From contig DYEN01000577.1 of assembly GCA_020725705.1 (NCBI GenBank), positions 1 to 56,423 on the forward strand: a stretch of 56,423 nt of DNA. The letters run 5' to 3'. Source of the stretch: Anaerolinea sp. Lineage in GTDB: Bacteria > Chloroflexota > Anaerolineae > Aggregatilineales > Aggregatilineaceae. Positions within the stretch are counted from its first letter, which is position 1; each line of letters starts with the position of its first letter. The position numbers and the translations under genes were made by a program. Below, piece by piece: positions 7,656 through 32,923 of this stretch. Below the pieces are notes generated by a model, which had not been told where the DNA came from, did not search any database, and saw nothing but the letters and a program-made list of their open reading frames with translations.

Positions 7656-8654
7656 ATGAGGTGGGCCATGACGAGATGGAGTAAACGAGCCGGGATGGCA
7701 TTGGGATCGCTGGCGGGGGGCGCGGCGCTGGCCGCCGGTGGCTGGATCGCCTACAGCCGTCTGGCGATCGATCATCACCTGCCGCTGCCGCCCGCGCTGG
7801 ATGCGGAACGCGAGCGGTTTGGGGGTGGCTTTGCGGGCAGCCTGCACGCCTATGTGGACCGGTCGGGCGCGGGGGTCCCGCTGGTGCTGTTGCACAGCAT
7901 CAACGCGGCAGCCTCGGCCTACGAGGTTCGCCCGCTGTTCGAGCGTTTCCGGGGACGGCGCCCCGTCTACGCGCTGGAGCTGCCGGGCTTTGGGTTTTCC
8001 GAGCGAGCCAACCGGCCCTATACGGCCCGCGTCTACACCAACGCGATCATCGACCTGCTAGAAACCCGGCTCGACGGCCCGGCAGACCTGCTCGCGCTGT
8101 CGCTGAGCGGCGAGTTCGCCGCCCGCGCTGCTCTTGAGCGGCCCGCACGGGTGCGGTCGCTGGCGCTGCTATCGCCGACCGGGTTGGGACCAGACCAGGC
8201 GCGGCGCGGGCCGAACGAGCGCGTCCACCGCCTGCTCTCGTTCCCGCTGTGGAGCCAGGCTCTCTACGACCTGCTGGTGACGCGCCGCAGCATCCGCTCC
8301 TTCCTGCGCCAGAGCTTTTACGGCGAGCCGGATGATGGGCTGGTCGCGTATAGCTATCTGACCGCCCATCAGCCCGGCGCGCGTTTTGCCCCGCTGGCGT
8401 TCCTCAGCGGCAGACCCTTCTCCCCGGACATCCGCCAGGCCGTCTACGAAAAGCTGACCCAGCCTGTGTTGGTGCTCTACGACCAGGACCCCTACACCCG
8501 CTTCGACGCCCTGCCGGACCTGTTGATGCAGCACGACAACTGGCAGGCGCAGCGCATCATCCCGTCGCGCGGGCTGCCGCACTTCGACCAGCCGGAGCAG
8601 ACCTTCCAGGCGCTCGAAGCGTTCTGGCAGGGGCTTGAGAACGGCGCGAGCTAA
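7656..8654 (+). CDS. Alpha/beta-fold hydrolase
   Basis: Oxyanion-region LVLLHSINAAASAYE, nucleophile-elbow-like LALSLSGEF, and an N-terminal TM/signal segment. Start chosen at the ATG at 7656; the longer ORF from 7548 has no support. Confidence 0.75.
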   Translation: MRWAMTRWSKRAGMALGSLAGGAALAAGGWIAYSRLAIDHHLPLPPALDAERERFGGGFAGSLHAYVDRSGAGVPLVLLHSINAAASAYEVRPLFERFRGRRPVYALELPGFGFSERANRPYTARVYTNAIIDLLETRLDGPADLLALSLSGEFAARAALERPARVRSLALLSPTGLGPDQARRGPNERVHRLLSFPLWSQALYDLLVTRRSIRSFLRQSFYGEPDDGLVAYSYLTAHQPGARFAPLAFLSGRPFSPDIRQAVYEKLTQPVLVLYDQDPYTRFDALPDLLMQHDNWQAQRIIPSRGLPHFDQPEQTFQALEAFWQGLENGAS

Positions 8655-9532
8655 AGCGCCTCCGCCACGAACTGGATCTCGACCTGCCCGTTCTCGATGC
8701 GCGCTCGATAACGCGGCTGTGGAAAGGTCGCCGGGCCGTGCACCACCCTGCCGTCGCGCACATCGAAGACCGAGTCGTGCCACGGGCACTGAACACAGGT
8801 GCCGTCGAACGTTCCTTCTTCTAGCGGGCCGCCCGCGTGCGAGCACACCGCGCCGATGGCGTAGACCGTTCCCCCGAAGCGGTAGAGCAACACGGGCGCG
8901 CCCTCAACCTCGACGCGATGCGGCCGGTGCTCGACCAGCTCGCTTGCGGGCATCACGGCAGTCCAGTCGCCCGGCCCGGACGGCTTGGGGGCGTGGTTGA
9001 CGCCGACCCGTTTGCGGAAGACCAGCTCGCCGCCCAGATAGCCGCCCACCGTCACCCACCCGAAGCCTAGCAGTGAGAGCGCCGTCGCCAGCCCACGCCG
9101 GTCCTGGCGGCGCGCGATCAACGACAGCCCGTAGAACGTCAGCGCCACATCGTTGACGATCGCGTGCAGCGCGGCCAGCGGCGCCGCGTCGCGCTTGATC
9201 GCGGAATAATCGGCCAGGCCGGTCAGCGCGGTCGGGATCGCCGCCGCCGTCCCCAGGCCGGTCAGCGCGTCCCCGGCCCGCTGCGTCCGCTCCGAGCGCG
9301 TCAGCAGACCGGCAAGGTCGAACAGGCTCCCGAAGCTCCACCCGCCGATGGTAAGGTCGGTCAGCAGCGGATGCGCAGGATGCCCGAGCCACTTGCCGTG
9401 CAGCACATCAATCGCCCGGCGCGCCGGTTCGCCCGCCCCCAACACCGCGCGGTGCATCGCCTGGGCAGCCTGGCGGGCGAAACGCGTAAAGCCCGGCACG
9501 CGCTCGATCACACTGGTCAAAAGCATCATCAC
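8651..9532 (-). CDS. Membrane protein with N-terminal DUF2231-like domain fused to a C-terminal Rieske [2Fe-2S] domain
   Basis: 293 aa. N-terminal polytopic part with LGHPAHPLLTDLTIG. C-terminal Rieske motifs CSHAGGPL ... CPWHDSVF. Confidence 0.8.
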   Translation of the reverse strand: MMMLLTSVIERVPGFTRFARQAAQAMHRAVLGAGEPARRAIDVLHGKWLGHPAHPLLTDLTIGGWSFGSLFDLAGLLTRSERTQRAGDALTGLGTAAAIPTALTGLADYSAIKRDAAPLAALHAIVNDVALTFYGLSLIARRQDRRGLATALSLLGFGWVTVGGYLGGELVFRKRVGVNHAPKPSGPGDWTAVMPASELVEHRPHRVEVEGAPVLLYRFGGTVYAIGAVCSHAGGPLEEGTFDGTCVQCPWHDSVFDVRDGRVVHGPATFPQPRYRARIENGQVEIQFVAEAL

Positions 9533-9700
9533 ACGTTACTGTCCTTTCTGAAGCATGCCGCGCAACGGTGCGCAGCGAAAAGCAGCGCTATCTCGTATTA
9601 TGAACTTAGATCGATTAGCAGCCGTCTGCCCACTGGCCGGGCGACCCGGCGCGCGTCGCCGCGTGGAGCTGGCCGGCACATTCTGAAAGCGCAGGACGCC

Positions 9701-10513
9701 ATGCTGCCACAGCAACAACTCATCACGCGCGTGCGCGCGCTCGCCGAGCGTGACGCCCGCCTGAACGCGCTGATGATGTACGGCTCATTCACACGGGGCG
9801 AAGGCGACGCCTACTCGGATATCGAGTTTCTGCTGTTCTTCGAGGACGCGGCGTTCGACCAGGTCGCGCCGCGAGCGTGGATCGAACAGGTCGCGCCGGT
9901 GCTGCTGGACTACACCAACGAGCACGGCATCGTCGAGGTGATCTTCGACAACCTGGTGCGCGGCGAGTTTCATTTTCACCGCGTCTCCGACATGCCCATG
10001 GCGGAGTCCTGGCGCGGCGTGGTGACGTTTCCCACGCTGGAATCAACCCTGCTGGTCGACAAAACCGGCCATTTCGCTGCGTACCTCGCCCCGCTGATCG
10101 GGCCGCCGCCGGAGCGCGCCACACCCGCCGCGCTGGAAACGCTGGCGCGCCACTTCGCCAATCTCTGGCTGTTCGGCCACAACGTCCAGCGGCGCGGAGA
10201 GCACGCGCGGGCGCTGGAGATGTTGAACGGCGTGCACCGCGCGCTGTTGCACCTGGCGCGCGCCGTCGAAGGGCAGACGGCCAACTGGCTGACACCCTCA
10301 AAAGGGCTGGAGCAGGACCTCGGCGCCGACTCTTACGCACGCTTCCGCGCCTGCACCGCGCCGCTGGATCCGGCTGCGCTGAGCCGCGCTTATGCGGAAA
10401 GCTGGCTGTGGGGACGCGAACTGCTCGACCGCGTCGAGGCGCAATACGGGATTGGGTTGCCGGGCGCGGTGCTGGAGCGGCTGTCGGGTCTGGCGGGCGC
10501 GCTGAGCACCTAG
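9701..10513 (+). CDS. Nucleotidyltransferase, lincosamide nucleotidyltransferase Lnu(B)/Lnu(F)-like
   Basis: 270 aa. Motifs MMYGSFTRGEGDAYSDIEF, VIFDNLVRGEFHF and NLWLFGHNVQRRGEHARALEML match my recollection of Lnu(B)-type enzymes. ATG at 9701 has AGGA 5 nt upstream. The upstream part of ORF 9164..10513 is antisense to the Rieske gene. Confidence 0.7.
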   Translation: MLPQQQLITRVRALAERDARLNALMMYGSFTRGEGDAYSDIEFLLFFEDAAFDQVAPRAWIEQVAPVLLDYTNEHGIVEVIFDNLVRGEFHFHRVSDMPMAESWRGVVTFPTLESTLLVDKTGHFAAYLAPLIGPPPERATPAALETLARHFANLWLFGHNVQRRGEHARALEMLNGVHRALLHLARAVEGQTANWLTPSKGLEQDLGADSYARFRACTAPLDPAALSRAYAESWLWGRELLDRVEAQYGIGLPGAVLERLSGLAGALST

Positions 10514-14175: not shown

Positions 14176-14481
14176 CTATTCGGGGCGAGGCAACGCCTCG
14201 ATCTGCCCGATCAGCGCGAAGTCGCGCTCGGTGATACCCCCGGCGGAATGGGTCATCACGCGGACCGTCAGGTGTTTGTAGTCGTGAAGATGCAGGTCCG
14301 GGTGATGATCGAGGCTCTCGGCCAGGTGCGCGATCGCATTGAGAAAGAGGATCGCGCGGCTGAAGTTCTTGAAGACGAACTCCGCGTAAAGCTGCCCGTC
14401 GTCACCCAACTGCCACGCCGGATAGCTGCCAAGCCGCTCGCGGACAGCCGCTTCACTCATGGGCTGCGCTTGCTCTGGCAT
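14176..14481 (-). CDS. phhB: Pterin-4-alpha-carbinolamine dehydratase
   Basis: 101 aa. NAIAHLAESLDHHPDLHL.Y..LTVRVMTHSAGGITERD is the canonical PCD/DCoH core. Confidence 0.88.
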   Translation of the reverse strand: MPEQAQPMSEAAVRERLGSYPAWQLGDDGQLYAEFVFKNFSRAILFLNAIAHLAESLDHHPDLHLHDYKHLTVRVMTHSAGGITERDFALIGQIEALPRPE

Positions 14482-14758
14482 GGATGTCTCTCCTGCACAA
14501 CGTGTCGTGGTTTATTCCAGCCGCCCCTTACCGCCCGCCTGCAATCCCGGCGCGCGAGTGGGCAATTGCGTGCAGATTATACGATAAATTAAAAGGAACT
14601 CATAAGAAACTTGCGTGTTTCTAAAGCACTGCTAATGCGGAGCGTGTAACCTGTCATCCGAACACGGCATCTGATAATACGTATGCGCGTTGCAACTCTT
14701 CACTACCGCAGCGATGCAGACACCGGACGGGTTTGAACAACGGAACGAGGATGAGAGC

Positions 14759-15418
14759 ATGGCGAACAATGGGAAGCTGGCCGGTACGGGAAATGGGAAC
14801 GGCCACGTGCAGCAGGCTGTCGAGCGTCTGGCTGCCCAGACCTTTCACGCGCTGGACTCGCGCGCGGCGATTGAAGAAGCGGTCAAGCTGATCTTGATCA
14901 ATGTGGGCGAGGACCCCAACCGCGACGGGCTGTTGCGCACGCCGCAGCGTGTCGCGCGCATGTATGAAGAGCTGCTCGAAGGCTATCACCAGGATTTGCA
15001 AGCCGTCCTCAACGACGCGCTGTTCGATGTGGAATATGGCGAGGGCGAGATGGTGGTTGTGGCCGATATCGAGTACCAGTCGCTGTGCGAGCATCATATG
15101 CTGCCGTTTGTGGGCAAAGCGCACGTTGCCTACATCCCGCGCCACAAGATCGTCGGCCTCAGCAAGATCCCGCGCATCGTGGATATGTTCGCCCGGCGTC
15201 TGCAGGTGCAGGAGCGCATGACCAACGAGATCGCGGACGCGCTTGAGGAAGTGCTCGATCCCGTCGGCGTGATAGTCGTCGTCGAAGGCCAGCATAGCTG
15301 CGCGTCATTGCGCGGCGTCAAGAAGCACGGCGTCAACATGGTCACCACCGCCAAGCGCGGCGAGTTCCGCACCAACCGCGACCTGCGCGACGAGTTCTAC
15401 CGGCTGATCGGGCGCTAG
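14759..15418 (+). CDS. folE: GTP cyclohydrolase I (FolE)
   Basis: [59 protein letters not shown]. Start chosen at the ATG at 14759 with GAGGA upstream; the ORF is open from 14690. Confidence 0.93.
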
Positions 15419-15453
15419 ACCGGCGCCTGACTCGCACTTCAAAGGACGCGCGT

Positions 15454-16221
15454 ATGGACCTGCACGAGAAGGTTGTCCTGGTGACCGGCGGCGCGCACCG
15501 CGTCGGCAAAGCGATTGCCCTTGCCTTCGCCGGGGCGGGCGCGCACGTCGTGATCCACTACGGCTCGTCGGAAGATGCCGCGCACGCCACCGCCCGCGAG
15601 ATCAAATCGCTCGGCGTGCAGGCGCTCGTCGTCCAGGCGGACCTGGCGGACCCGGCGGCCATCGCGGACCTGTTCGAGGCGGTGCGCGATCGCTTCGGGC
15701 GGCTGGATGTGCTGGTCAACAGCGCCGCGAACTTCATCAAACAGCCATTCGACGAAGTCACGCTGGACGCCTGGAAAGATGCCATGCAGGTCAACCTGCG
15801 CGCGCCGTTTTTCTGCACGCAGCATGCCGCCCGCCTGATGCGCGCCACGCCCCGCCCTGCCGACCAGCCCGCCGCCATCATCAACATCGGCGACCTGGCG
15901 GGGGTGCACCCCTGGCGCGATTTCGTGCAGCACGGCGTCGCCAAGGCCGGGCTGCTTCACCTCACCAAGATCAGCGCGCGCGAACTGGGGCCGGACGTGC
16001 GCGTCAACGCCATCGTGCCCGGCGCCATCCTGCCCCCGGCCTCGATCGCGCCCGACAGCGAGCGCTGGCAGGCGATGGGCGAAAGCGTTCCGCTGCGCCG
16101 CACGGGCCACCCCCGCTACGTGGCGCAGACCGCTATCTTTCTGGCGCAAAACGACTACATTACCGGCGCGATCATCCCGGTCGACGGAGGTGAGCACCTG
16201 ATCGGCATCGGCACGCACTAG
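15454..16221 (+). CDS. Short-chain dehydrogenase/reductase, pteridine-reductase (FolM/PTR1)-like by context
   Basis: VLVTGGAHRVGKAIALAFAGAGAHVVIHYGSS cofactor-binding turn, NSAA and SDR-fold motifs. Lies 35 nt downstream of folE. Confidence 0.8.
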   Translation: MDLHEKVVLVTGGAHRVGKAIALAFAGAGAHVVIHYGSSEDAAHATAREIKSLGVQALVVQADLADPAAIADLFEAVRDRFGRLDVLVNSAANFIKQPFDEVTLDAWKDAMQVNLRAPFFCTQHAARLMRATPRPADQPAAIINIGDLAGVHPWRDFVQHGVAKAGLLHLTKISARELGPDVRVNAIVPGAILPPASIAPDSERWQAMGESVPLRRTGHPRYVAQTAIFLAQNDYITGAIIPVDGGEHLIGIGTH

Positions 16222-16370
16222 ACCGCTGCCCCCGCTCTCCGAGTGCCGGCCCCACAACCCAAATCAATCCGTTGCAATCACGAGGCTGCCCCGCGCTCGT
16301 CCGGCGCGCCGTGCCGCCTGTGCTCTCCCTACCCTGAGCTGCCGGACACCAGAACCACAGGAGCAACTAC

Positions 16371-17153
16371 GTGAACACAGCCAACCCTGCCACCGAGCAG
16401 ACCTTCCGCAATCTGCGCCGCTTTAACCTGATCATGGGTGTCTTCCACCTGATTCAGGGCCTCGTGATGCTGATCATCAGCAACGATTTCACCGTCCCGA
16501 TCAACACCTACTTCCTCAAATTCGTCGAAGGCGAGGGGTTGGTCAGCGACCCGCAAACCTGGTTCGAGCTGCCGCTTGGGCCGTTCATCGCGTCGTTTCT
16601 GTTCATGTCCGCCATCGCGCACTTTGTCATCTCCCTCCCCGGCGTCTACGAGTGGTACGTGCGCAACCTCAAGCGGGGAATCAACTACGCCCGCTGGGTC
16701 GAGTACGCCTTCAGTTCGTCGGTGATGATCGTCGCCATCGCCACGCTGTTCGGCATGTACGACGTCGCCGGCCTGCTGGCGTTGTTCGCGCTCAACGCCG
16801 CGATGATCCTGTTCGGCTGGATGATGGAGCTGCACAACCAGACCACCGAGCGCACCAACTGGACGGCCTTCATCTTTGGCTGCATCGTCGGCATCGTGCC
16901 GTGGATCGCGATCGGGATCTACTTCGTCGGCTCGGTCACCAGCGGCGAGAACGTGCCGGACTTCGTCTACGCGATCTACATCTCGCTGTTCCTGTTCTTC
17001 AACATCTTCGCGCTCAACCAGTTCTTGCAGTATAAACAGGTGGGCCGCTGGAAGGATTACCTGTTCGGCGAGCGGATGTACATTGTGCTGTCGCTTGTCG
17101 CCAAGTCGCTGCTGGCGTGGCAGGTCTTCTTCGGCACGCTCCAGCCCAGCTAA
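16371..17153 (+). CDS. Heliorhodopsin (seven-TM retinal protein, inverted topology family)
   Basis: 260 aa, GTG start with AGGAG upstream. Family motifs run along the whole length: FNLIMGVFHLIQ, RWVEYAFSSSVMIV (counterion Glu), MILFGWMME, FGCIVGIVPWIAIGIY, ISLFLFFNIFALNQFLQ, GERMYIVLSLVAKSLLAWQVF (Schiff-base Lys). These match my recollection of heliorhodopsin 48C12. Confidence 0.92.
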   Translation: MNTANPATEQTFRNLRRFNLIMGVFHLIQGLVMLIISNDFTVPINTYFLKFVEGEGLVSDPQTWFELPLGPFIASFLFMSAIAHFVISLPGVYEWYVRNLKRGINYARWVEYAFSSSVMIVAIATLFGMYDVAGLLALFALNAAMILFGWMMELHNQTTERTNWTAFIFGCIVGIVPWIAIGIYFVGSVTSGENVPDFVYAIYISLFLFFNIFALNQFLQYKQVGRWKDYLFGERMYIVLSLVAKSLLAWQVFFGTLQPS

Positions 17154-17166
17154 GGGCGGTTACTTC

Positions 17167-17232
17167 CCCTCACCCCGGCCCCTCTGCAAGTGCGTCACGG
17201 GGAAGGGCAAGCCTGAGCGGGCGGGGTGAGGG
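17167..17232. repeat. GC-rich palindromic intergenic (REP/MITE-like) element, copy A
   Basis: An 11-bp inverted repeat, CCCTCACCCCG (17167..17177) and CGGGGTGAGGG (17222..17232), brackets 44 nt. More CCC/GGG-rich hairpin sequence continues to about 17280. It has the same GGGTGAGGGCC terminus as the copy at 34388..34503. Confidence 0.55.
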
Positions 17233-17367
17233 CCTGAGCAGCCGCCACCCGCTCCCCGTGTCCCAGGGCAGAGGGTTGAGGACCGGCAAGTGCATAACAC
17301 GCTCCAGACACGCGCGCCGCTTCGGGCGCTCGTGCATACAAATCCGAAACCGATCGGGAGGTGAACC

Positions 17368-18309
17368 GTGGCAGCCGAACAACCGCTTCATGTCGTTTTG
17401 GGAACCGGGGCGATCGGCATTGCCGTCGCCGAAGCGCTGGTCCAGAGGGGCGAGCGTGTCCGCGTGGTGAACCGGCGAGGCAACGCGGCTATCCCTGGCA
17501 TCGAGCCTGCCGCCGCAGACGTGAGCGATCCGGGGCAGGCGCGCGAGGTAATGGCCGACGCCAGCGTGATCTACAACTGCACGAACCCCTCGGCCTACCA
17601 CATCTGGCCGGATGTGCTGCCACAGCTGCAGGCGGGCATCCTGGCAGGTGCAGAAGCTGCGGGCGCCAGGCTGGTGGTGATGGACAATTTGTACATGTAC
17701 GGGGCGACACACGGCACGCCGATGACCGAAGACATGCCCTATGCCGCGACGACGAAGAAGGGTCGCCTCAGGGCCGAGATCGCCGAGAAGTGGATGGCCG
17801 CGCACCGGGCCGGTCGCGTGCCGGTTGTCATCGCCCGCGCCTCGGACTACTTCGGGCCAAACGGGCGCGCCGCCATGCTCGACGCGGTGTTTGGCCGGGC
17901 CGTGCGGGGCAAGAGCGCGCAGGTGATCGGCGATCCGGACATGCCGCACACCTACACTTACGTGCCGGATATCGGCAAGGCGCTGGTGATTCTGGGTGAG
18001 CGCGATGAGGCGCTCGGCGAGGTCTGGCACGTGCCCAGCCCGGAAACCCTCACGACGCGTGCCTTCATCGAGCGGATCGCAGACGCGCTCGGCCGGCCGA
18101 TCAAGATTCAGGTCGCGTCCACGTGGTTGCTGCGCGTCATGGGGCTGTTCCAGCCGACGATGCGCGAGCTGATCGAGATGGTCTACGAGTTCAACGAGCC
18201 ATTCATCGTTGACGACAGCAAATTCAAGGCCGCGTTCGGAGACATCGCAACCCCGTTGGACGTCGCGATCCCGGACACGCTGGCGTGGTACCAACAGCAC
18301 ATGGACTAG
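17368..18309 (+). CDS. NAD(P)-dependent epimerase/dehydratase-family (atypical SDR) oxidoreductase
   Basis: 313 aa. N-terminal Rossmann turn VLGTGAIGIAVAEALVQRGERVRVVNRR. GTG start with GGGAGG upstream. Confidence 0.75.
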   Translation: MAAEQPLHVVLGTGAIGIAVAEALVQRGERVRVVNRRGNAAIPGIEPAAADVSDPGQAREVMADASVIYNCTNPSAYHIWPDVLPQLQAGILAGAEAAGARLVVMDNLYMYGATHGTPMTEDMPYAATTKKGRLRAEIAEKWMAAHRAGRVPVVIARASDYFGPNGRAAMLDAVFGRAVRGKSAQVIGDPDMPHTYTYVPDIGKALVILGERDEALGEVWHVPSPETLTTRAFIERIADALGRPIKIQVASTWLLRVMGLFQPTMRELIEMVYEFNEPFIVDDSKFKAAFGDIATPLDVAIPDTLAWYQQHMD

Positions 18310-18356
18310 CTGCGCGATCGCACTGCGCGGACATCTTCGAGCACAAGTGAGGTCAC

Positions 18357-18731
18357 ATGACGGGCGCTCAGGATAAAATCATCATTAAGAACCTGCTGCT
18401 GCGCGGCATCATCGGGATCAACGACTGGGAACGCGAAAAGCGGCAGGACATCCTGGTTAACCTGACGCTCTTCGCCGATCTGCGCGCTGCCGGGCAGTCG
18501 GACAGCGCGGACGATATCCTAAACTACCGCACGATCACCAAAGCGGTGATCGACTATGTGGAGAACTCGCAGCACTACCTGGTCGAGGCGCTGGCGACCG
18601 CGATCGCGCGTATCTGCGTGGTCGAGCACGGGGTGCCGCGCGTGATCGTGCGCGTCGAAAAACCGGGCGCGCTGCGCTTCGCCGAATCCGTCGGCGTCGA
18701 GATCGAGCGGACACGGGCCGACTTTGAGTGA
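18357..18731 (+). CDS. folB: Dihydroneopterin aldolase (FolB family)
   Basis: 124 aa. IIIKNLLLRGIIGINDWEREKRQDILVNLTLFADL ... LNYRTITKAVIDYVENSQHYLVEALA is the typical FolB/FolX fold sequence. Confidence 0.85.
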   Translation: MTGAQDKIIIKNLLLRGIIGINDWEREKRQDILVNLTLFADLRAAGQSDSADDILNYRTITKAVIDYVENSQHYLVEALATAIARICVVEHGVPRVIVRVEKPGALRFAESVGVEIERTRADFE

Positions 18732-19251
18732 GATCATCCTGATCACGCTTGGCTCGAACCTGGAGCCGGAAATCCACCTGCCGCGCGCGGTTCGCCTGCT
18801 GGCGGAGCGTGTGCGGGTGGTGGGTGTCTCACGGGTGTACGAGTCGCCCGCGGTCCGCGCTGACGGCACGCTCGATCCGGCGCAGCCACCCTTCCTCAAC
18901 GCCGCCGCCCAGATCGAAACCGATCTTGAGCCGGTGCCGCTCAAGTACGATGTGCTGCGCGCCATCGAGGCGGAGATGGGGCGGCAGCGAAGCCCCGACA
19001 AGTTCGCGCCGCGTGTGATCGATCTGGACATCGCGCTTTACGGCGATCTGCTGCTCCAGCTTGACACGGAAGACACGCATCTTCTGCTGCCCGATCCGGA
19101 CATTCTGGATCGGGCGCACGTGGCGCTGCCGCTGGCCGATCTGGCGCCCGATCTGATTCACCCAACCAGTGGCGAAACCCTGCGCGCCATCGCCGACCGT
19201 TTCGCGGGCATCAGCACCATCCGCGTCCGCCCGGATATCCGGCTCGACTGA
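18724..19251 (+). CDS. folK: 2-amino-4-hydroxy-6-hydroxymethyldihydropteridine pyrophosphokinase (HPPK)
   Basis: ILITLGSNLEPE ... SRVYESPAV ... PFLNAAAQIET ... APRVIDLDIALYGD. Overlaps the folB stop by 8 nt; the start codon is probably TTG. Confidence 0.85.
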   Translation: MSEIILITLGSNLEPEIHLPRAVRLLAERVRVVGVSRVYESPAVRADGTLDPAQPPFLNAAAQIETDLEPVPLKYDVLRAIEAEMGRQRSPDKFAPRVIDLDIALYGDLLLQLDTEDTHLLLPDPDILDRAHVALPLADLAPDLIHPTSGETLRAIADRFAGISTIRVRPDIRLD

Positions 19252-19400: not shown

Positions 19401-20069
19401 ATGAGTGAAGAGAAACCGCCTGTCGTTCCACCCTCGCCTGAACCGCCGCTCGAACCGGAGCAAACCCCGGCCGAGCCTGAAGCCGCCAGCCCGCCGGAAC
19501 CGTCCCCGCAACCCGCTGCGGCGATCCCGGAAGCGCCATCCCAGGCAGCCGAAGCACCCCCCGCGGCCCCGCCCGCTGAGCCGGAGCCGGCGGCGCAGAT
19601 CCGCTCGATTCCCCCGCTTCCCGATCGGCCCGCGCTGCGCAGCAGCGAATACTGGCGGCGGCGGAGCGACAACCTGCTGGTACAGCTTGGCATCGACGGC
19701 AGCCTGGCCGCGCGCGCGCTGTTGCTCGCCGCCGTGCTGGCCGCCATCGGCGCGCTGCTCGATGAGATCCTGGGGCTGCCGGGAGAAACGCTGCGTGTCT
19801 CGTTCGGCGGGACGCTGGTCGCCGGGCTGAGCGGGCTGAGCTATGGCTTCTTCAAGGGCCGCGCCGACCTGCCCGGCCTGATCATGGCCGCCGTCGCCGG
19901 GCTGGTCGCTTACGTGGTCTGGTATGTGGTCAAGGACATCATCGGTGTAGCCGGCTTCGAGATGAATCTCTTTAAGGCCATCTTCAGCGGGCTGCTGGCG
20001 GGGATCCTGGGCTTCGGGTGGCTGGTGCTGCTGCACGAGGCCCCCAAACTGCTGGCGCGGGAACCCTAA
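19401..20069 (+). CDS. Hypothetical membrane protein with Pro/Glu/Ala-rich N-terminal region
   Basis: 222 aa. About 85 aa of low complexity (PEPPLEPEQTPAEPEAASPPEP...) is followed by about 4 hydrophobic helices. No recognisable motif. Confidence 0.5.
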   Translation: MSEEKPPVVPPSPEPPLEPEQTPAEPEAASPPEPSPQPAAAIPEAPSQAAEAPPAAPPAEPEPAAQIRSIPPLPDRPALRSSEYWRRRSDNLLVQLGIDGSLAARALLLAAVLAAIGALLDEILGLPGETLRVSFGGTLVAGLSGLSYGFFKGRADLPGLIMAAVAGLVAYVVWYVVKDIIGVAGFEMNLFKAIFSGLLAGILGFGWLVLLHEAPKLLAREP

Positions 20070-20343
20070 GGGCTGAGACGACCAAACGCCTGGACAGCAC
20101 TCTGACCCGGGTCGGGGTCGGCGTCGCGGCGAACACGCTCCACACGTCAGTGATGGAGCCGGGCACGTGCCGCCTGGGGCCGCGGGAACAGAGCGGCCAG
20201 AGGCCATCATCAACTCACCCAACCGGATCGCCGGGGAAGATGTAAGAGGCGATCCGGAAATGTTACCTGCCTGTGTCAGGCATCGGCAACGCTGTGACCG
20301 TTGGAGCAGATCGCGATTGCCTCTTGCAGCCTCGCCAAACCGT

Positions 20344-20997
20344 CTAGTCGATCAATCCCCGTTGCAGGGCATATCGTATGAGTTCGCTGCGGGAGTTAAG
20401 GTTTAATTTGCGCATGACATTGCCGCGATGAAAGTCAACCGTTTTAGGTGTAATAAACAATGCTTCTGCAACTTGCTGGTAGGTATTGCCGCGCGCCAAC
20501 ATGACCAATACTTCGCGCTCGCGCTCAGTTAACGTGTCCAGCAAGTCAGTCGGTGTCTGGATGTCACGCCGCACGCCGTCCACTAGGACGCCGGTAATCC
20601 TTGGATCAAAGAAAGTGTCGCCCGCAGCAACAGCGCGAATCGCTGAAAGCAATTCATCCCCGTCGGCCCGCTTGAGGACATATCCGGAAGCACCAAGCTT
20701 GAGTGACGGAATGATATATTCCTTATTCTCGTGTTGCGTCAAGATCAAGACTCGAATTTCCGGGAAGGCATCCTTGATGGCCCGCGTTGCTGCCAGTCCA
20801 TCCATGCCCGGCATACCGATATCCATCAGAACGACATCGGGCTGTAGCTCGCGCACCCGTGCCAATGCTTCCTGGCCGTCGCCCGCATCACCGACAACCT
20901 CAAAATCGGGTTGCACGTCGAGCAGGGCGCGAATACCAGCGCGCAAGACGGAGTGATCGTCGACGATCAATATTCGGATTTTTGAGAACACCGGCAT
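20344..20997 (-). CDS. Response regulator, NarL/LuxR (FixJ) family
   Basis: REC domain ([13 protein letters not shown] ... [13 protein letters not shown] ... ILTQH) plus LuxR-type HTH ([43 protein letters not shown]). Start taken at [10 protein letters not shown]. Confidence 0.92.
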
Positions 20998-21054
20998 TGC
21001 TCGTTCAGCCCTCAGAAAGCTTTTGTATGCCAGATCGTACCCCAACCAAGGAAA

Positions 21055-23382
21055 TCAGGGCGAAGTCTCTTCCGGATGGTAAGATCGCACGTCGTGCTCT
21101 ATGGCGAGCGGGATCTCTGCCCGCACGCGGGTGCCGCGGCCCAACTGTGACTCGAGATGAAAGCTCCCAGAGAGCAGATCGGCGCGTTCTTTGATTCCTA
21201 ACAAACCCCAACCGCGCCCTTCTCTTTCACGGATCTCCAGGGCGTTCGCGAGGTCGAACCCTTTGCCGTTGTCGTGGATCTCCAACATGACTCGATCGCT
21301 ATCCGCCCGCATCTTGATCTTGACTTCGCTCGCTTCAGCATATTTGGAGATGTTCGTCAACGCTTCCTGCGCGATTCGAAAGAGCGCGGTTTCGATGTCC
21401 GGCGCGAACCGCACCTTATCATCTCCCTCGATTTCCCATATTACCTTAATACCGAGCTTTTCCAGGCGAGATTCTGCATACCAGCGAATGGCCGGAAGCA
21501 ACCCCAAATCGTCCAGCAGGCTCGGACGCAGATCGTAAATAACCGTCTGCAATTCTCGCACAGCGTCACTGGTGGAGACGCGCAGCCGCTTGAGGATTTC
21601 CCCGGCATCCATAGAAGGATCCGTCAGCGCCAGTTCAGCCGTTTTCAGGCCGAAGATCAGGGCATTAAGGGATTGACCGAACTCATCATGGAGTTCGCGC
21701 GCGATACGCTTCCGCTCCTCCTCTTGTGCGCGGATCGCTTTTGCCAGCAGTTGCGCCCGCAGGCGCTCTTTGTCTTTCAGATCGTTCCACAGCCGGGCAT
21801 TCTCCAGCGCGACACCCAGCTGAGAGCCAATCATCACCATAAGGCGGAAGTTCTCCTCGGTGAAAAATGAAGGGCTATAGGCGGCCACATTCAAGGCACC
21901 GATTACCCGACCACCCTCAATGAGGGGAACGCTGGCATGACAATGCACCGGTTTGCCGCTGCTGCTGTGAGAATGGGACAAGACGCAGTTGTGTCCCGGC
22001 GTTACGATGATCGGGCTTTTCGTGCGAAGCACAAGCCCGCAATCGCACTCAGGAAAGCGCACACTGAGCTGCACAAGGGGTTCGGCAAAGCCGGCTACGG
22101 CGGCCAGATAGGGCGGTGAGTTCTCACGCGCAATGGCGATCCACCCTGCCGGCAGGTCGAGCACTGCCAGCACCTGTTCAAGGGCTTCTTGCAGCATATG
22201 TTCAATGTTGCTGCTGCGTCGGTTCATAATCGCAGATATAGCGTTCAGTGTTGCCAGTTCGCGATTCTGGCGCTGGATCTCGGCTTCTTTTGCCTTGCGT
22301 TCAGTGATATCCCGGGTGAACCAGGCTAATGCACGCTTCCCTTCATATTGAATGATAGTGCCGCTTGTCTCCACAATAACCGCACGGCGATCCCGCGTCA
22401 GGAGCTGCATTTCATGCCTTAGCGCGGTGCTCTTGCCATCCCGGATAGTCTGCCATGCCTCGTACGCGGCGTTTAGGCTGTTGGGATGGATAACCTCTGC
22501 CGCGTTGAGGTTCAGCAGATGCGTGCGCTCGTAACCGGTGAGGCGGCAAAACTCATCGTTAACGAACAAGAAGCTGCCCTCATTAACCGCCTCATCGCAA
22601 ATCAAGGCGATGCCTTCGCCAACCTGCCCTGCAGCCTTGAGCAGCGCACGATACCCTGCCCGCGAGTCTTGAAGCTGGGTAATCGTTCCCTGCAGGTCTA
22701 CCGCCATGGCGTTGAACGCTCGCGCGAGATCGCCGATTTCGTCTCGATTATTGATGGAAATCGTCTGGGTCAAATCTCCGGAGCCGAAACGCTGAACCCC
22801 TTCGGTCAAGCGGGAGAGAGGACGCGTGACGATGCGTGCAAATACAATCGCAGCCACAACGCCAGCCATCATCCCAACCGCTGTCAGGCCGAAAATGATC
22901 CAGGTCAGATCTTGAAGGACATCAGTTATGCCGGTTTGACTGAAGCCAAGATGGAGTTCGATATCGAGTTTGTCGGTCAGACGCCAACCGAAATCCTGAA
23001 TGACGCCTGCTTCGGTTCTCAACAACGTTTGTTGTGTAAGCTGCCCGGCAGGCATAGCGTTTGCGGCCAGCAGGTCCACGGGAAACCCATTAGCAAAGGT
23101 GTGGACGACAACACGTCCCGGAGCGCCAATTGCATAGGCATAGATAATGTTGGGATTAGACCCCTTTAGATATTGGAGAAACTCCTGAACCGCTACCATA
23201 TCGCCTTCTAGCAAGGCGTTGGCGATGGCATTTCCGGATATTTGCACCAGGGCTGAGCCATGAGCATCCAGCTCGCTGCTCAATTTACTGGCAACGACCG
23301 TGTTGATCGCCCCGATTGTCAGCACGCCCAGGCTGATGACAATCAGAGAGGTGAAGATAATGATCTTGGTATGTAGTTTCAT
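21055..23382 (-). CDS. Sensor histidine kinase (TM, periplasmic domain, TM, HAMP, PAS, GAF, HisKA_3, HATPase_c)
   Basis: 775 aa. Two TM helices flank a periplasmic segment of about 135 aa. HAMP (LSRLTEGVQRFGSGDLT...IGDLARAFNAMA). PAS ending in FTRDITERK. A GAF-like block. H-box RIARELHDEFGQSLN (NarX/HisKA_3 type). G-boxes HDNGKGF and GWGLLGIKER. ATGA overlap with the upstream binding-protein gene. Confidence 0.92.
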   Translation of the reverse strand: MKLHTKIIIFTSLIVISLGVLTIGAINTVVASKLSSELDAHGSALVQISGNAIANALLEGDMVAVQEFLQYLKGSNPNIIYAYAIGAPGRVVVHTFANGFPVDLLAANAMPAGQLTQQTLLRTEAGVIQDFGWRLTDKLDIELHLGFSQTGITDVLQDLTWIIFGLTAVGMMAGVVAAIVFARIVTRPLSRLTEGVQRFGSGDLTQTISINNRDEIGDLARAFNAMAVDLQGTITQLQDSRAGYRALLKAAGQVGEGIALICDEAVNEGSFLFVNDEFCRLTGYERTHLLNLNAAEVIHPNSLNAAYEAWQTIRDGKSTALRHEMQLLTRDRRAVIVETSGTIIQYEGKRALAWFTRDITERKAKEAEIQRQNRELATLNAISAIMNRRSSNIEHMLQEALEQVLAVLDLPAGWIAIARENSPPYLAAVAGFAEPLVQLSVRFPECDCGLVLRTKSPIIVTPGHNCVLSHSHSSSGKPVHCHASVPLIEGGRVIGALNVAAYSPSFFTEENFRLMVMIGSQLGVALENARLWNDLKDKERLRAQLLAKAIRAQEEERKRIARELHDEFGQSLNALIFGLKTAELALTDPSMDAGEILKRLRVSTSDAVRELQTVIYDLRPSLLDDLGLLPAIRWYAESRLEKLGIKVIWEIEGDDKVRFAPDIETALFRIAQEALTNISKYAEASEVKIKMRADSDRVMLEIHDNGKGFDLANALEIREREGRGWGLLGIKERADLLSGSFHLESQLGRGTRVRAEIPLAIEHDVRSYHPEETSP

Positions 23383-24374
23383 GGCTGCAGCAGACCATAT
23401 ATCCTGGCCCAGTGGCGCAGGTCATCGTAGTCACTAGCCACGACTAACCCAAAACCATTGGGCATTTCGGTGCGCTCCCAATGATATAGCTCCAACCCAT
23501 TCAGGCGCTTGGGGTTGAAAGCAAGCAATGCCTGCTGCACTGCGTCGGCCACTTCGGCAGGAACATGAGCGCCGGCGATGATTCCGCTAGACGGAAACGG
23601 GTCTGATTGGGCGATGATGCGGACAAGCCCCTGTTCTGCCAGAGTTCTTCCTAAAGTATCCTGCACTGCACCGGCATCGACTCGGCCGCTAATCACCGCG
23701 TTAGAGGTCTCAAAATGCGACCTCGTGAACTCGTGAGACTGCAAATCGCCAAGCTCAATGCCCGCCTGGGACATCATAATTCGGGGAATGAGATATCCCT
23801 GAGTGGAGTTGCTGGCCCCAAAAGCAAAGGTATGGCCTGCCAGATCGCGTAATGATTTCAGGTCGCTGTCAGGTCGGGAGACAATCAGCGATCGATACGA
23901 GCCTTCACCGTTTGAATTCAACCCACAGACCAGCATGGTGGCCGCCGAAACTTCGCGTACCTGAAGGTATGTAAGCGTGCCGGCTATGGCGAAATCTACC
24001 TGTTCCGCCAGGATCTCGCGCACCAGACTTCCAGCCTTGGGGGTAACGTGCAGCCTGAACTTGTAACCCGTTTCATTTTCAAGATATTGGAGCAGCCCGG
24101 AGTAGATGCGTACATCCTCTTTTGGCTCAAGTCGCCGGTCAAAGCCGAAGCTGTAAACCGGTTCAGATTCCACTGTAGCGGGCCAGCGGACTTCCCCTCG
24201 AATCAGGTTGTTCTCTAATGACACATTGACAGGCTCTTTGTCGGTATTCAGGCACGCAGAACCGGCCAGGAGGATGCCAAGGCCGAACATCAGGCCCGCT
24301 GCAACCCGGAGCTTGTTTCCTGGCTGAATACCCGCCGAAATGCTGTACAACCATGAAAACTTTAATGACATCAT
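23379..24374 (-). CDS. PhnD-like (phosphonate/phosphite ABC-type) periplasmic substrate-binding protein; no transporter partner, coupled to the kinase
   Basis: 331 aa. N-terminal signal/anchor ending LLAGSAC. Type-2 PBP core (YSFGFD..., FAIAGTLTYLQ, STQGYLIPR) typical of the PhnD family. No ABC permease or ATPase lies next to it. Its stop overlaps the kinase start. Confidence 0.8.
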   Translation of the reverse strand: MMSLKFSWLYSISAGIQPGNKLRVAAGLMFGLGILLAGSACLNTDKEPVNVSLENNLIRGEVRWPATVESEPVYSFGFDRRLEPKEDVRIYSGLLQYLENETGYKFRLHVTPKAGSLVREILAEQVDFAIAGTLTYLQVREVSAATMLVCGLNSNGEGSYRSLIVSRPDSDLKSLRDLAGHTFAFGASNSTQGYLIPRIMMSQAGIELGDLQSHEFTRSHFETSNAVISGRVDAGAVQDTLGRTLAEQGLVRIIAQSDPFPSSGIIAGAHVPAEVADAVQQALLAFNPKRLNGLELYHWERTEMPNGFGLVVASDYDDLRHWARIYGLLQP

Positions 24375-24873
24375 ATCCCCACAAGGCGCCTACGCCTTCT
24401 AGAGCGTGTTAAGAACTGAACGAGAAACACGCACCGGCCTCGAGTTTTCGTGCAGGGGCGACGCTTGCATTGCGCGCGGCCAACCCATCTCGCGTGTAAC
24501 CCAGGCGGAGCAAGGCGCCCCCTCGCGCGATACCGGGTCTCCGATCCGGTCTGTAAGTGTTCATAACCGTCTTCTAGGACAAGGCACGCGATTTTTGGCG
24601 AGTATGCCACAAGCCATCCTTTCATCAAAACAACTGCGGACAATTCCTAGGAAATTCCCCAGGTACAACCCCGGTTCCTTCCCCAGTTAACCTGACTATC
24701 TCTGCCGCCTACAATCGAAGATGTATCAGTGTGCGTATAGCCCTGTTTCCCCTGCGAGAAACCAAGGCAACAAGGAGTGTGACTTATGTCTGGAGAATCC
24801 CTTGACGCAGGCTTCATGCCATGAGCGTGCCTTCGAGGTATGTGCTGTGGCAAGAACAAAGGAGAAATTAGAC
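24375..24873. promoter_or_regulatory. Divergent control region between the sensor operon and the molybdoenzyme operon
   Basis: 499-bp non-coding gap between divergently oriented genes. It contains a perfect 10-bp palindrome TTCCTAGGAA (24644..24653) and a 12-codon mini-ORF with a strong AAGGAG site (24786..24824). Confidence 0.5.
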
Positions 24874-25785
24874 ATGGCCAAAGATGACGATCTGTTGAGA
24901 GAAGCGCTCGCTGGTGACGAGACCAGCCGCCGTTCCTTTCTGGGCAAGTTTGCAGGCGGGGTATTTGCCGGCCTGGTGGCGCCCGCGCTGATAGGTGAGG
25001 TGCGCGCCGCTCACGCCGCCCCTGACACCCAGGAACAGCCAGACCTTGCGCCGCTTCCTGACCTGCCCGAGGCGATCGAAGGAGAGCACCCGGTTGTGCG
25101 CATGATGGAAGACCTGCGCCGCGCTTTGCAGAAGCCGATGGCCGAGCGTAAGTGGGCGATGGTGATCGATCTGCGCAAGTGCACCGGTTGCAACGGCTGC
25201 AATATCAGCTGTGTAACCGAGAACAAGCTGCCGCCTGGGGTCACGTACCGTCCGGTAATGACCGAAACCCAGGGAACCTATCCGCACGTGTCGCGCCGGT
25301 TTGTTCCACGCCCCTGCCTGCAGTGTGAAGATCCCCCCTGTGTGCCTGTCTGCCCGGTCAGGGCAACGTACAAACGCGCGGACGGGATCACAGTCATTGA
25401 CTACGAACGGTGCATTGGCTGCCGGTATTGCATGACAGCCTGCCCCTACTCGGCCCGGTACTTCGATTTCGGTCGGTTCTACGGGGACAATGAAGGCGGC
25501 GAGCGCCAGCCCTATGAGCTGCTACCCACACCGGAATATCGCAAGAACTACGACCGGGCCGAAGGCGGCTCCCCGATTGGAAACGTGCGCAAGTGTCATT
25601 TCTGTATTCATCGCATCGAGCACGGTGAACTGCCAGCCTGCGTGCTTAGCTGCATGGGCCGGGCAACCTACTTTGGCGATATGAACGATCCTGCCAGTTT
25701 GGTCTCGGAACTTATCGCTCAACCCAATGTCATGCGACTCAAGGAAGAGTTGGGAACCGATCCCAAAGTCTTCTATCTTGTCTAG
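24874..25785 (+). CDS. Tat-exported 4x[4Fe-4S] ferredoxin-type electron-transfer subunit (NrfC/TtrB/PsrB-like)
   Basis: Twin-arginine motif [12 protein letters not shown]. Four Cys clusters: [60 protein letters not shown] at 24874 preceded by AAAGGAGAA. Confidence 0.9.
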
Positions 25786-25796
25786 GAGATACAACC

Positions 25797-28628: not shown

Positions 28629-29269
28629 CGGTGACAGAACAAACACTGGCTGAGCGAGCAGGGCTTTACAGCCTGCTGCACGCCTTCTACACCTATCCTT
28701 TGACAGAGTCTTTGCTTGCTGACGTAGCTGGCCTGTCTCTGCCGGCTGAGTCGCCGTTGTTCGACGGCCTGGTGCAAATGCAAACCGGTCAGCTAAGCGC
28801 TGAGACGCTGAACGTGGAGATGACTCGATTGCTGGAAGGCCCTGGCCGCACACCGGCTCCACCTTACGCGTCCTACTATCTCAACGACAGGCAGTTGATG
28901 GGGCCGCCCGCTACGATGGCACGTCAGACTTACCTGGAATGGCAAATCTACCCGGAAGGCGACCAGTACATACCGGATGATCATCTGGCTCTGGAACTGG
29001 GCTTTATGGCCTATTTGGCCCAACTGGCCCTGTCATCAGAGCCGGACCGGAACAAAGCACTGGTGGCGAGCTACCGATTTCTGGTCGACCAGATTGTACC
29101 CTGGTTGCCTCACTTCAGCAGGGCGTTGACCCAAGCAACCGAGGAACCATTCTTTGTCGGGTTGGTACGCTTCACGCAAGCAGCCATTCAGTCGGACCTT
29201 GAGTGGCTGGAATCGTACCTGCGTGCAGATCCGCGCCAGGCGCCATCCGTCCAAACGCCAGGCGTTTAG
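28625..29269 (+). CDS. TorD/DmsD-family redox-enzyme maturation chaperone
   Basis: 214 aa. LYSLLHAFYTYPL ... PPYASYYL ... PDDHLALELGFMAYL is typical of TorD-like chaperones. ATGA overlap with the catalytic-subunit stop. Confidence 0.8.
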   Translation: MTVTEQTLAERAGLYSLLHAFYTYPLTESLLADVAGLSLPAESPLFDGLVQMQTGQLSAETLNVEMTRLLEGPGRTPAPPYASYYLNDRQLMGPPATMARQTYLEWQIYPEGDQYIPDDHLALELGFMAYLAQLALSSEPDRNKALVASYRFLVDQIVPWLPHFSRALTQATEEPFFVGLVRFTQAAIQSDLEWLESYLRADPRQAPSVQTPGV

Positions 29270-29279
29270 GAGGAAGAAA

Positions 29280-30473
29280 ATGGCTCAAACAACTGCAATA
29301 CGACCCGCAGCACCTGAGCGTCGCTTCAGTTTTCAACTGACAGATCTATTCTGGCTGTTGGGAATTGTCCTGCTGGCTGCCGGTGCATGGGGGATGTGGC
29401 AACGGCTGAGCGAAGGACTTGCCCCTACAGCCCTCAACAGCTATGTGCCTTGGGGTCTGTGGGTTGGCTTCTACGACTATCTGGTGTGGTTGGAAGTCGG
29501 CAGCCTGCTGGTCTTCACCACCGTTGTGTATCTGGTAGGCTACAAGCCTCTGGCCGCACTCAAGCCACAGATCTACTTCACGGGTTTCGTGGCTCTGTTC
29601 ATGGCACTGCTTCTTGTCCTGCTCGACTTAGGGCGGCCGACGCGCTTCTGGCACGTCTATCTGTATCCGGACTTTGGCTCCATGATCACCTGGATGGTCT
29701 GGCTGCATACCGCCTATTTGGTCATCCTGTTGGCCAAACTTCTGCTGGTGACCAACAGAGTGTCGGTTGGGCCAGAACGGAGAGACTGGCTTCTACAAAA
29801 GCTAGCCTATCTGAGTCTGCCTATGGGCCTGGCTTTGATCATCGTCAGCGGCTCGATCTTCGGCGTGGTCACCGCGCGGCCCCTGTGGAACACCTCATCA
29901 CTTCCCTTGATGTTCCTGCTCTCGTCCCTGGCTGCAGGAAGCGCGCTCATCACACTCTTGGCCGTGTTGTTCTGGCCGAATCGGCAAACAGATGAGTATC
30001 GTCAGGTGATGAAGCTGCTTGCCCGGATGACAGCCTGGCTGCTGCTGGCCGGAGCCTTTGCGGCAGGTATCATCGGGTTGACGTTCCTGTATCAGGGCAG
30101 TCCGGCGCGAGCAGAAGCGGTGAATCTGGTTCTGACAGGGCCTTACTGGTGGAGCTTCTGGATCGTCCACTTGTTAATCGGTGTGCTGATACCCCTGCTG
30201 GTCCTCTTCACCCAGGCTCACAGGCCAGCGCTAGTCGGCTTTGCCAGCCTGCTGGCTGTAGTCACGTTTGTGGCAGTGACCCTCAACATCGTGATCCCGG
30301 CACTGGCTACGCCGGAGCTGGAAGGTCTGGTGCTGGCCTATGTGGATCCGAAGATGAGCTTTGATTACGTACCCAATCTGACAGAGTGGATGTTAATTTC
30401 GTTCATTTTTGGGTTGGGTGGTGTTGTGTATGGTCTGGGTCTTCGCTGGCTACCGGTAAAACCGGCGGCCTAG
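29280..30473 (+). CDS. NrfD/PsrC-family polytopic quinol-interacting membrane anchor
   Basis: 397 aa with about 8-10 hydrophobic helices. NrfD-like N-terminal pattern (WGLWVGFYDYLVWLEVGS). AGGAGG lies upstream of the ATG at 29280. Last gene of the operon. Confidence 0.8.
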   Translation: MAQTTAIRPAAPERRFSFQLTDLFWLLGIVLLAAGAWGMWQRLSEGLAPTALNSYVPWGLWVGFYDYLVWLEVGSLLVFTTVVYLVGYKPLAALKPQIYFTGFVALFMALLLVLLDLGRPTRFWHVYLYPDFGSMITWMVWLHTAYLVILLAKLLLVTNRVSVGPERRDWLLQKLAYLSLPMGLALIIVSGSIFGVVTARPLWNTSSLPLMFLLSSLAAGSALITLLAVLFWPNRQTDEYRQVMKLLARMTAWLLLAGAFAAGIIGLTFLYQGSPARAEAVNLVLTGPYWWSFWIVHLLIGVLIPLLVLFTQAHRPALVGFASLLAVVTFVAVTLNIVIPALATPELEGLVLAYVDPKMSFDYVPNLTEWMLISFIFGLGGVVYGLGLRWLPVKPAA

Positions 30474-30534
30474 GACCCCGGGGCCATCGCCGCAATAGGC
30501 CTATGTAGGCCCGACAGATTGAAGTTGGCGACCC

Positions 30535-32848: not shown

Positions 32849-32923
32849 TCAATGATGAAGCGGGATGGAGTGGCCAGGCGAACAGGCCACTCCATCACCC
32901 GCCGAATTGCGGCTCGTTTCGAG

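Follow-up and report, generated by a model that had tools for sequence, protein, structure and literature searches.

A heliorhodopsin gene within a conserved pterin/folate gene string of the Aggregatilineaceae, possibly captured long ago at an insertion-tolerant junction

In a 56,423-nt stretch of DNA from Anaerolinea sp., family Aggregatilineaceae (contig DYEN01000577.1 of assembly GCA_020725705.1; hereafter the window, whose positions serve as coordinates throughout), a heliorhodopsin (HeR) gene lies among genes for pterin and folate biosynthesis. Gene identities were assigned from a table of open reading frames (ORFs) and from Pfam and NCBIfam profile scores, which were compared with the curated cut-offs. 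All seven genes named in an initial annotation, i.e. those for pterin-4a-carbinolamine dehydratase (PCD), FolE, a short-chain dehydrogenase/reductase (SDR), HeR, an atypical SDR, FolB and FolK, were recovered at the coordinates given for them, and the ORF table bears out that the six genes from folE to folK run on the plus strand, with PCD diverging from FolE over a 277-nt, AT-rich spacer. The region holds the following features:

14176-14481, minus strand: PCD (PF01329, 90.6 bits, cut-off 26; NF002017, 80.0 bits, cut-off 80)
14619-14675, plus strand: folE upstream element, with TTCTAA at 14619-14624, GTAACC at 14646-14651 and, 18 nt further on, TCTGAT at 14670-14675
14759-15418, plus strand: FolE, GTP cyclohydrolase I (PF01227, 247.7 bits; TIGR00063, 232.1 bits, cut-off 181.6)
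15454-16221, plus strand: SDR1, a PTR1/FolM-like classical SDR (best NCBIfam model PRK09135, 217.5 bits, cut-off 288)
16371-17153, plus strand: HeR (NF038020, 361.9 bits, cut-off 100; PF18761, 347.1 bits, cut-off 26.7)
17154-17300, strand not assigned: repeat resembling repetitive extragenic palindromes or miniature inverted-repeat transposable elements (REP/MITE-like), containing the inverted repeat at 17167-17232
17368-18309, plus strand: SDR2, an atypical/extended SDR (PF01370 and PF13460, both weak)
18357-18731, plus strand: FolB-family dihydroneopterin aldolase or epimerase (PF02152, 108 bits; TIGR00525, 73.1 bits, cut-off 72.15)
18724-19251, plus strand: FolK, 6-hydroxymethyl-7,8-dihydropterin pyrophosphokinase (HPPK; PF01288, 93.5 bits; TIGR01498, 87.1 bits, cut-off 54.1)
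19401-20069, plus strand: 222-aa protein with no match in Pfam or NCBIfam, conserved 3' of FolK

From FolE through FolK, the gaps between successive genes in the window are 35, 149, 214, 47 and -8 nt, the start of folK lying inside the end of folB. The FolX model NF008418 gave 107.7 bits on the FolB-family protein, above the score of the folB model yet under its own cut-off of 152; the 8-nt overlap with folK would speak for an aldolase role.

The HeR gene has a GTG start preceded by a GGAG Shine-Dalgarno sequence, and its product covers the PF18761 profile from end to end (positions 1-242 of 242) and matches TaHeR (6is6) with E = 4e-78. In the alignment to TaHeR, the helix-7 motif S241-L-V-A-K245, with K245 as the Schiff-base lysine, and the helix-3 counterion E111 are in register; an SxxxK motif has served as a criterion for HeRs (Bulzu et al. 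2021). From homology to solved HeRs, we infer that the protein binds retinal and adopts the inverted topology with a cytoplasmic N-terminus. Median pairwise dN/dS ratios of 0.17-0.30 for the six operon genes (0.20 for HeR) indicate purifying selection on all six. The closest relatives of both HeR and the SDR come from Chloroflexota, Anaerolineae, Aggregatilineaceae.

The conservation of this arrangement was assessed by comparing the window proteins by tblastn with 80 species-representative HeR loci from GTDB genomes and with loci retrieved by protein search (loci are denoted by L numbers). The full string, PCD diverging from FolE-SDR1-HeR-(SDR2)-FolB-FolK-222-aa protein, is present in the window, L001, L004/L011, L006, L007, L008, L009/L101, L010, L012, L013, L108 and L109. 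The HeR-bearing order thus extends over at least 10 species-level lineages of the Aggregatilineaceae, among them the cultured Aggregatilinea lenta (L006), and is not an insertion unique to this strain. Identity to the window at the linked loci is 72-96% for HeR and falls to 55-58% for FolK. Over 10 independent assemblies (NCBI, JGI, ENA and Logan), including an isolate genome, show this gene order, and L007, a metagenome-assembled genome (MAG) from a South African deep mine, is collinear with the window across the whole string at ~91% nucleotide identity.

SDR1 is the immediate upstream neighbor of HeR at every linked locus except that of A. lenta, where an insertion sequence (IS) element intervenes. 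There, a DDE_Tnp_1 IS element and two ORFs lie between SDR1 and HeR (L006:6522-9940), and a duplicated 58-aa C-terminal fragment of SDR1 is kept directly upstream of HeR; because these insertions split the operon, HeR-SDR2-FolB-FolK of A. lenta needs another promoter. An apparent second, independent HeR-FolB link in a Caldilineales MAG (L062; a 62% HeR beside an 83% FolB) was rejected as a chimera. In its segment 7402-9103, the upstream part is ~60% identical to L008, the final ~170 nt of HeR and all that follows match L008 at ~99.8%, and the junction in the conserved 3' segment of HeR is either an assembly join or the product of recent recombination.

The spacing of the genes bears on their expression. 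Across the linked loci the gap from SDR1 to HeR measures 40-170 nt, and that from HeR to FolB is only 26-27 nt in L008, L009, L012 and L101. No sigma-70-like promoter was found in 11 SDR1-HeR spacers, in which the GGAG Shine-Dalgarno sequence alone is conserved, and neither HeR-flanking spacer of the window holds a terminator-like site; plus-strand terminator-like matches occur only at 17105-17123, inside the HeR coding sequence, and their total count is not above chance. Since transcription of folB and folK must cross HeR in L008, L009, L012 and L101, co-transcription of HeR with the fol genes is a reasonable inference. The earlier view of HeR as embedded in a pterin gene string is in this sense upheld within the family, where the order is conserved and HeR looks co-transcribed.

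Control of the operon seems to be exerted upstream of folE. Between 50 and 110 nt before FolE, we found a shared element with the consensus TTCTAA ... CTnA ... GTAACC - 17-19 nt - (GCA)TCTAA, overlapped in the window by a sigma-70-like match at 14651-14678. The element, which we take to resemble ECF-sigma promoters, is probably a promoter or operator. It occurs in operons with and without HeR (window, L004, L006-L013, L102-L106 and L108); as it is common to HeR-less operons, control of the operon would predate HeR. A riboswitch in the folE leader was considered and rejected, as Rfam returned no match and RNAalifold predicted zero pairs from 13 sequences.

Operons that do without HeR were found through the contexts of SDR1 orthologs with 65-73% identity. 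L102, L105, L106 and L107 carry FolE-SDR1-FolB-FolK without HeR, and no HeR pseudogene remnant was detected in HeR-less SDR1-FolB spacers, even at E <= 10. Other genes occupy the same place: in L103, a 4.18-Mb genome, a minus-strand gene for a TIR-domain protein (7766-8848) sits exactly between SDR1 and FolB, and in L104 a TIR-NACHT gene (7940-10108, plus strand) follows SDR1. Both genes are defense-like in appearance, and the two contigs come from the same ENA sample. In L004, a cupin gene lies between FolE and SDR1. SDR2 is patchy, being confined to two separate sub-lineages (window/L001/L007 and L006/L013). With TIR, TIR-NACHT, IS element and SDR2 all found there, the SDR1-FolB junction is a place where unrelated genes have landed repeatedly.

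Conversely, HeR is found in many other surroundings. At ~60 more distant HeR loci (Patescibacteria, Actinomycetota, Dehalococcoidia and others), FolE, SDR1, FolB and FolK never adjoin HeR; the lone pterin-gene match is a 41% FolK in L064, on the opposite strand and 5.6 kb away. A batch Pfam scan of 138 immediate neighbors from ~70 non-pterin HeR loci yielded 130 different families, each seen at most three times and none of them a pterin/folate family. Recurrence of the synteny across HeR-bearing relatives, the check proposed in the initial annotation, is thus seen in at least 10 Aggregatilineaceae lineages but not at the ~70 other HeR loci, where no pterin gene is adjacent. Families met three times each were DNA photolyase, AlkZ-like glycosylase, DUF1295, DUF2177, GH38 and NmrA-like; pyrimidine-dimer glycosylase, MsrA and desulfoferrodoxin were met twice each. 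DNA photolyase adjoins HeR, for example, in L041 (956-2299, minus strand), an Acidimicrobiia MAG, and in L043 (10836-12176, minus strand), whose HeR clusters with that of L041.

A further comparison is offered by a sister clade (L014-L025) of 12 HeRs that are 71-80% identical to the window HeR and have no pterin gene within 10 kb. Their contexts differ: PHP and GH38 in L014, L015 and L021; AhpC-like and DUF2177 ... DUF1295 and DegV in L019, L020 and L023; an SDR and an NmrA-like gene in L022 and L024. When the 13 in-operon HeRs were set against these 12 out-of-operon HeRs, a single position lacked a common residue, residue 64 in the extracellular A-B loop, and no position in the cytoplasmic loops separated the two sets. 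The dN/dS ratio was 0.083 (dS 1.15) for the out-of-operon and 0.22 (dS 0.77) for the in-operon HeRs, so that purifying selection outside the operon is equal or stronger; the higher dS may lower the former ratio somewhat. These comparisons suggest that HeR function is not visibly tied to the pterin context, and they gave no sign of an interface co-evolved with pterin enzymes. According to the record titles, dark habitats (South African deep-mine water, anaerobic membrane bioreactors) are represented among L007, L014, L015 and L018; the HeR is still under purifying selection, an odd fit with a purely light-dependent role.

In L022 (2061-3014) and L024 (10837-12315), the gene for an NmrA-like atypical SDR starts 29-59 nt after the out-of-operon HeR, and in L024 a gene for a 210-aa classical SDR (9314-9946) precedes HeR, echoing the SDR-HeR-SDR layout with no close homology to SDR1 or SDR2. 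The idea of a conserved module of HeR and an NmrA-like atypical SDR was dropped as a general rule, given E = 0.36 for L022/L024 against SDR2 and a frequency of 3 in 138 neighbors.

Bootstrapped neighbor-joining (NJ) trees were computed for HeR alone and for concatenated FolE, SDR1, FolB and FolK. In the HeR tree, the linked pair L108/L109 (bootstrap 100) splits off before the main linked group parts from the unlinked clade L014-L025; support is 72 for the unlinked clade and 70 for the whole group, and weak, at 38, for the main linked group. In the concatenated tree, the HeR-less clade of L102, L105, L106 and L104 (95) groups with HeR-bearing L108 (71) and L004, while L103 groups with HeR-bearing L006, L010 and L013 (81). 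Among the 80 species representatives, no assembly has two HeR loci, so that each sampled genome carries the group HeR in the operon or elsewhere, not both. The simplest reading of these patterns would be that HeR was inserted once, long ago, and was later lost or relocated on two or more occasions.

SDR1, as the constant upstream neighbor, merits a closer description. PTR1 and FolM have a TGxxxRxG cofactor motif and an Asp in place of the catalytic Ser of SDRs. The pteridine reductase model NF006598 (PRK09135) was the best of 224 SDR models for SDR1, yet its 217.5 bits remain below the cut-off of 288. Of the 121 homologs, 120-121 keep the stretch T11-G-G-A-H-R16-V-G18 (TGxxxRxG) and D147, and all 121 keep H160-G-x-[SA]-K164; alignment with FabG places H160 at the catalytic Tyr and D147 at the Ser. 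SDR1 and its 120 homologs form a coherent subfamily with the triad D147-H160-K164, which would be unusual for a presumed pteridine reductase. By motif and genomic position, SDR1 is PTR1/FolM-like; because its score lies under the curated cut-off and the catalytic Tyr is missing, we do not class it as a pteridine reductase member. A metagenome scan with SDR1 yielded nothing beyond near-identical copies and generic SDRs. For SDR2, the family is large and generic, with 2045 homologs among which identity drops sharply from 72-89% to 62% or less; SDR2 has the Rossmann GxGxxG motif, lacks YxxxK and finds its best PDB match, a weak one, in 3wj7 (E = 4e-9).

The inverted repeat in the HeR-SDR2 spacer, with 18-nt arms at 17167-17184 and 17215-17232 and 89% complementarity, had been suggested as something that may partly insulate the two halves of the string. 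The palindrome exists, but an insulator role is not supported, as the repeat belongs to a REP/MITE-like element that is dispersed in the window. The element is ~160 nt long, GC-rich and located in intergenic spacers, with terminal arms CCCTCACCC / GGGTGAGGG and an inner hairpin CTCTGCGAC / GTCGCGGAG. Its core motif, GGGTGAGGG, was counted 6 times in the window where 0.73 would be expected; there is a second full copy of the element at ~34342-34505 and a further match at 55999-56007. The predicted fold is not more stable than that of shuffled sequence (z = -0.98), and a U-tract is missing. Only in L007 and L001, the closest relatives, do related copies lie 3' of HeR; in L006 and L013, where SDR2 likewise comes after HeR, the gap is 75-77 nt and contains no such repeat. 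It is the presence of this element that makes the HeR-SDR2 spacer of the window so long.

Beyond the core genes, the 222-aa protein, which is rich in Pro, Ala and Glu at its N-terminus and hydrophobic in its C-terminal half, is found 3' of FolK in nearly all operons of the group, whether HeR is present or absent (homologs in L001, L006-L010, L012, L101, L102, L103 and L108). PCD is a conserved neighbor in L006-L013, L101, L108 and L109, and it is found close to operons that lack HeR, those of L102, L105 and L106. Genes for MsrB, a SCO1/thioredoxin-like protein and PCuAC are conserved upstream of the operon together with PCD; the redox neighbors lie on the opposite strand as a separate unit. 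The window contains neither a photolyase gene nor a gene for retinal synthesis.

Downstream, the window and L001 share a 17.4-kb island (20075-37435), the first ~11 kb of which have a lower GC content (55-58%). It encodes a GerE-type response regulator, a PAS-GAF-HisKA_3 kinase, a phosphonate-binding protein, a Fer4 / molybdopterin-oxidoreductase / NrfD complex, a sugar ABC transporter, a DHDPS-family lyase and a BNR sialidase. The island is absent from L007, L101 and L006, where UbiA-CNNM directly follows the 222-aa gene. The kinase and response regulator pair, 3 kb downstream, was rejected as a conserved HeR partner, as it lies inside this island.

We suggest that the locus reflects an ancient capture of HeR by a pre-existing pterin/folate operon at an insertion-tolerant junction, a reading to which we give a probability of roughly 55%. 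The starting state would have been a four-gene operon, folE - PTR1/FolM-like SDR - folB - folK, with a divergent PCD gene. HeR would have entered the SDR-folB junction once, early in the Aggregatilineaceae; the HeR-bearing arrangement has been passed on by vertical inheritance in 10 or more species-level lineages. HeR would then be expressed by read-through from the folE promoter and hence be made alongside the pterin enzymes, and the cis-link would stem from a tolerant junction and ready expression rather than from a need of HeR for these enzymes. We favor capture because the link is known from a single family, the operon is intact without HeR, HeR occurs elsewhere, the junction carries mixed cargo and the control region is indifferent to HeR. 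Any functional tie would most plausibly consist in loose co-expression in a response to light or oxidative damage rather than in a dedicated light gate.

Several observations weigh against capture. HeR is far more stable in the operon than the other cargo genes, and its purifying selection, comparable to that of its neighbors (omega ~0.2), is not that of a decaying passenger. NJ support is moderate at the key nodes (34-72%), so that two independent insertions at the same junction may have occurred; these, if real, would favor selection for the linkage. HeR partners with experimental support, i.e. glutamine synthetase (PMC9529153), photolyase (PMC9769723) and the ABC transporter OmrDE (PMC11109279), were all nominated as clade-limited operon neighbors, and HeR similarity in the group with glutamine synthetase ranges from 74 to 92% (PMC9529153), comparable to the 72-96% seen here. 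Furthermore, 'SDR family oxidoreductase' is already catalogued, without an explanation, as a frequent HeR neighbor, in a group that may include the present taxa.

These points lead to the alternative that HeR acts as a regulatory helper rhodopsin, whose positively charged cytoplasmic loops would bind an enzyme of the operon and alter its activity in the light. SDR1 would be the first candidate, with FolE, FolB or FolK as further options, and light would tune the supply of tetrahydropterin or folate, e.g. methenyltetrahydrofolate (MTHF). The idea draws on the operon embedding being kept over 72-96% HeR identity, on the intact HeR (K245, E111, omega ~0.2) and on SDR1 standing directly before HeR, with even the A. 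lenta HeR abutted by a duplicated SDR1 3' end. It is also in line with the precedents in which a neighbor proved to be a partner, with the SDR neighbor group recorded in the catalogue, and with the recurrence of photolyase and other photo-damage repair genes beside HeR in other clades. We nevertheless regard it as unlikely, as the association is limited to one family, the 12-species sister clade lives out of the operon with a lower omega and no diagnostic change in the cytoplasmic loops, the operon of relatives is intact without HeR, and unrelated genes occupy the same junction; moreover, record titles place several linked genomes in dark habitats (the deep-mine L007, anaerobic bioreactors), and genes for photolyase and for retinal synthesis are missing from the window.

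Direct contact would not be needed if HeR, as a sensor, and the pterin genes belonged to one photo-oxidative or oxidative-damage unit, in which reduced pterins and folates would supply repair enzymes and the folE upstream element would be a stress-responsive promoter. The conserved MsrB, SCO1/thioredoxin-like, PCuAC and PCD genes upstream and the promoter-like spacing of GTAACC - 17-19 nt - TCTAA would fit such a program, as would the photolyase, pyrimidine-dimer glycosylase, AlkZ-like glycosylase, MsrA, desulfoferrodoxin and AhpC-like genes beside other HeRs and the proposal that HeRs are switches for light-induced oxidative-stress defense (Bulzu et al. 2021). However, operons that lack HeR have the upstream element just as well, implying that the control predates HeR and is independent of it, the redox neighbors form a separate unit on the opposite strand, and folB and folK are housekeeping folate genes in an operon whose induction by light or stress is conjectural; we hold this explanation to be just as doubtful as regulation by direct contact. 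Finally, a strain-specific insertion or an assembly artefact, of which the chimeric L062 is a reminder, is extremely improbable, since the order is repeated in over 10 assemblies that are independent of one another and come from four data sources, an isolate genome included, and since L007 is collinear with the window.

The locus can be compared with characterized HeR operons. As in the HeR-glutamine synthetase operon of Actinobacteria bacterium IMCC26103 (Cho et al. 2022, PMC9529153), an intact HeR with basic cytoplasmic loops is co-directional with a soluble metabolic enzyme in a clade-confined unit with one predicted promoter. In that case, binding (Kd ~6 uM) and light-dependent modulation were measured (PMC9529153), whereas in the pterin case both would be predictions; its candidate partners are pterin/folate enzymes, and comparison of genomes shows that its HeR may be found outside the operon with no change that could be detected. 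The HeR-photolyase operon of Trichococcus flocculiformis (Shim et al. 2022, PMC9769723) shares a clade-limited neighborhood that nominates a partner and a light-damage theme, but the window has no photolyase and the enzymes encoded here make a pterin/folate precursor instead of repairing DNA. With operons in which HeR is a regulatory helper rhodopsin, the locus shares co-directional genes that are predicted to form one unit (gaps 26-170 nt) and an association conserved in the HeR clade, here with two or more losses or relocations.

Photolyase antennae can be folate-derived (MTHF). In Pseudomonas putida, light is reported to induce folE via LitR. FolE/FolX/FolM/PhhB-type tetrahydromonapterin/folate clusters of Proteobacteria combine GTP cyclohydrolase I, a FolB/FolX-family protein, a FolM/PTR1-like SDR (TGxxxRxG) and PCD, the same enzyme combination as at the present locus. 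Unlike these clusters, the locus has an SDR with His for the catalytic Tyr and a score under the pteridine-reductase cut-off, a FolK translationally coupled to FolB and an interrupting rhodopsin. The HeR neighbor catalogue has an SDR group in which, as here, HeR is flanked by SDR genes, and the A. lenta SDR1 bears exactly this NCBI name, 'SDR family oxidoreductase'; the DUF2177 context listed there was recovered independently in L019, L020 and L023. Unlike in that group, the SDR is here identified as a PTR1/FolM-like member of a folE-folB-folK operon.

The initial annotation knew of no established HeR-pterin link, and we likewise found none in the papers searched: no co-mention of heliorhodopsin with GTP cyclohydrolase was found, and the one co-mention each with 'pterin' and with 'folate' was incidental. 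The HeR contexts reported by Bulzu et al. (2021) comprise two-component systems, redox proteins, glutamine synthetase and NAD synthetase, with folate and pterin unmentioned. HeR in a pterin/folate operon is thus a conserved neighbor set that has apparently gone unreported.

The sole leads to the function of HeRs so far have been operon neighbors. For the approach of equating neighbor with partner, the present locus advises caution, as the same HeR lineage shifts among contexts that have nothing in common, with no change to be seen in it, and the junction occupied by HeR receives foreign genes in general. At the same time the locus is directly testable, with a conserved neighbor set, the cultured A. 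lenta and a specific first candidate in SDR1. If HeR did regulate a pterin enzyme, it would gain a fourth, metabolically distinct class of partner, and a retinal photoreceptor would be linked to the supply of pterin chromophores and cofactors, e.g. MTHF for photolyase or cryptochrome.

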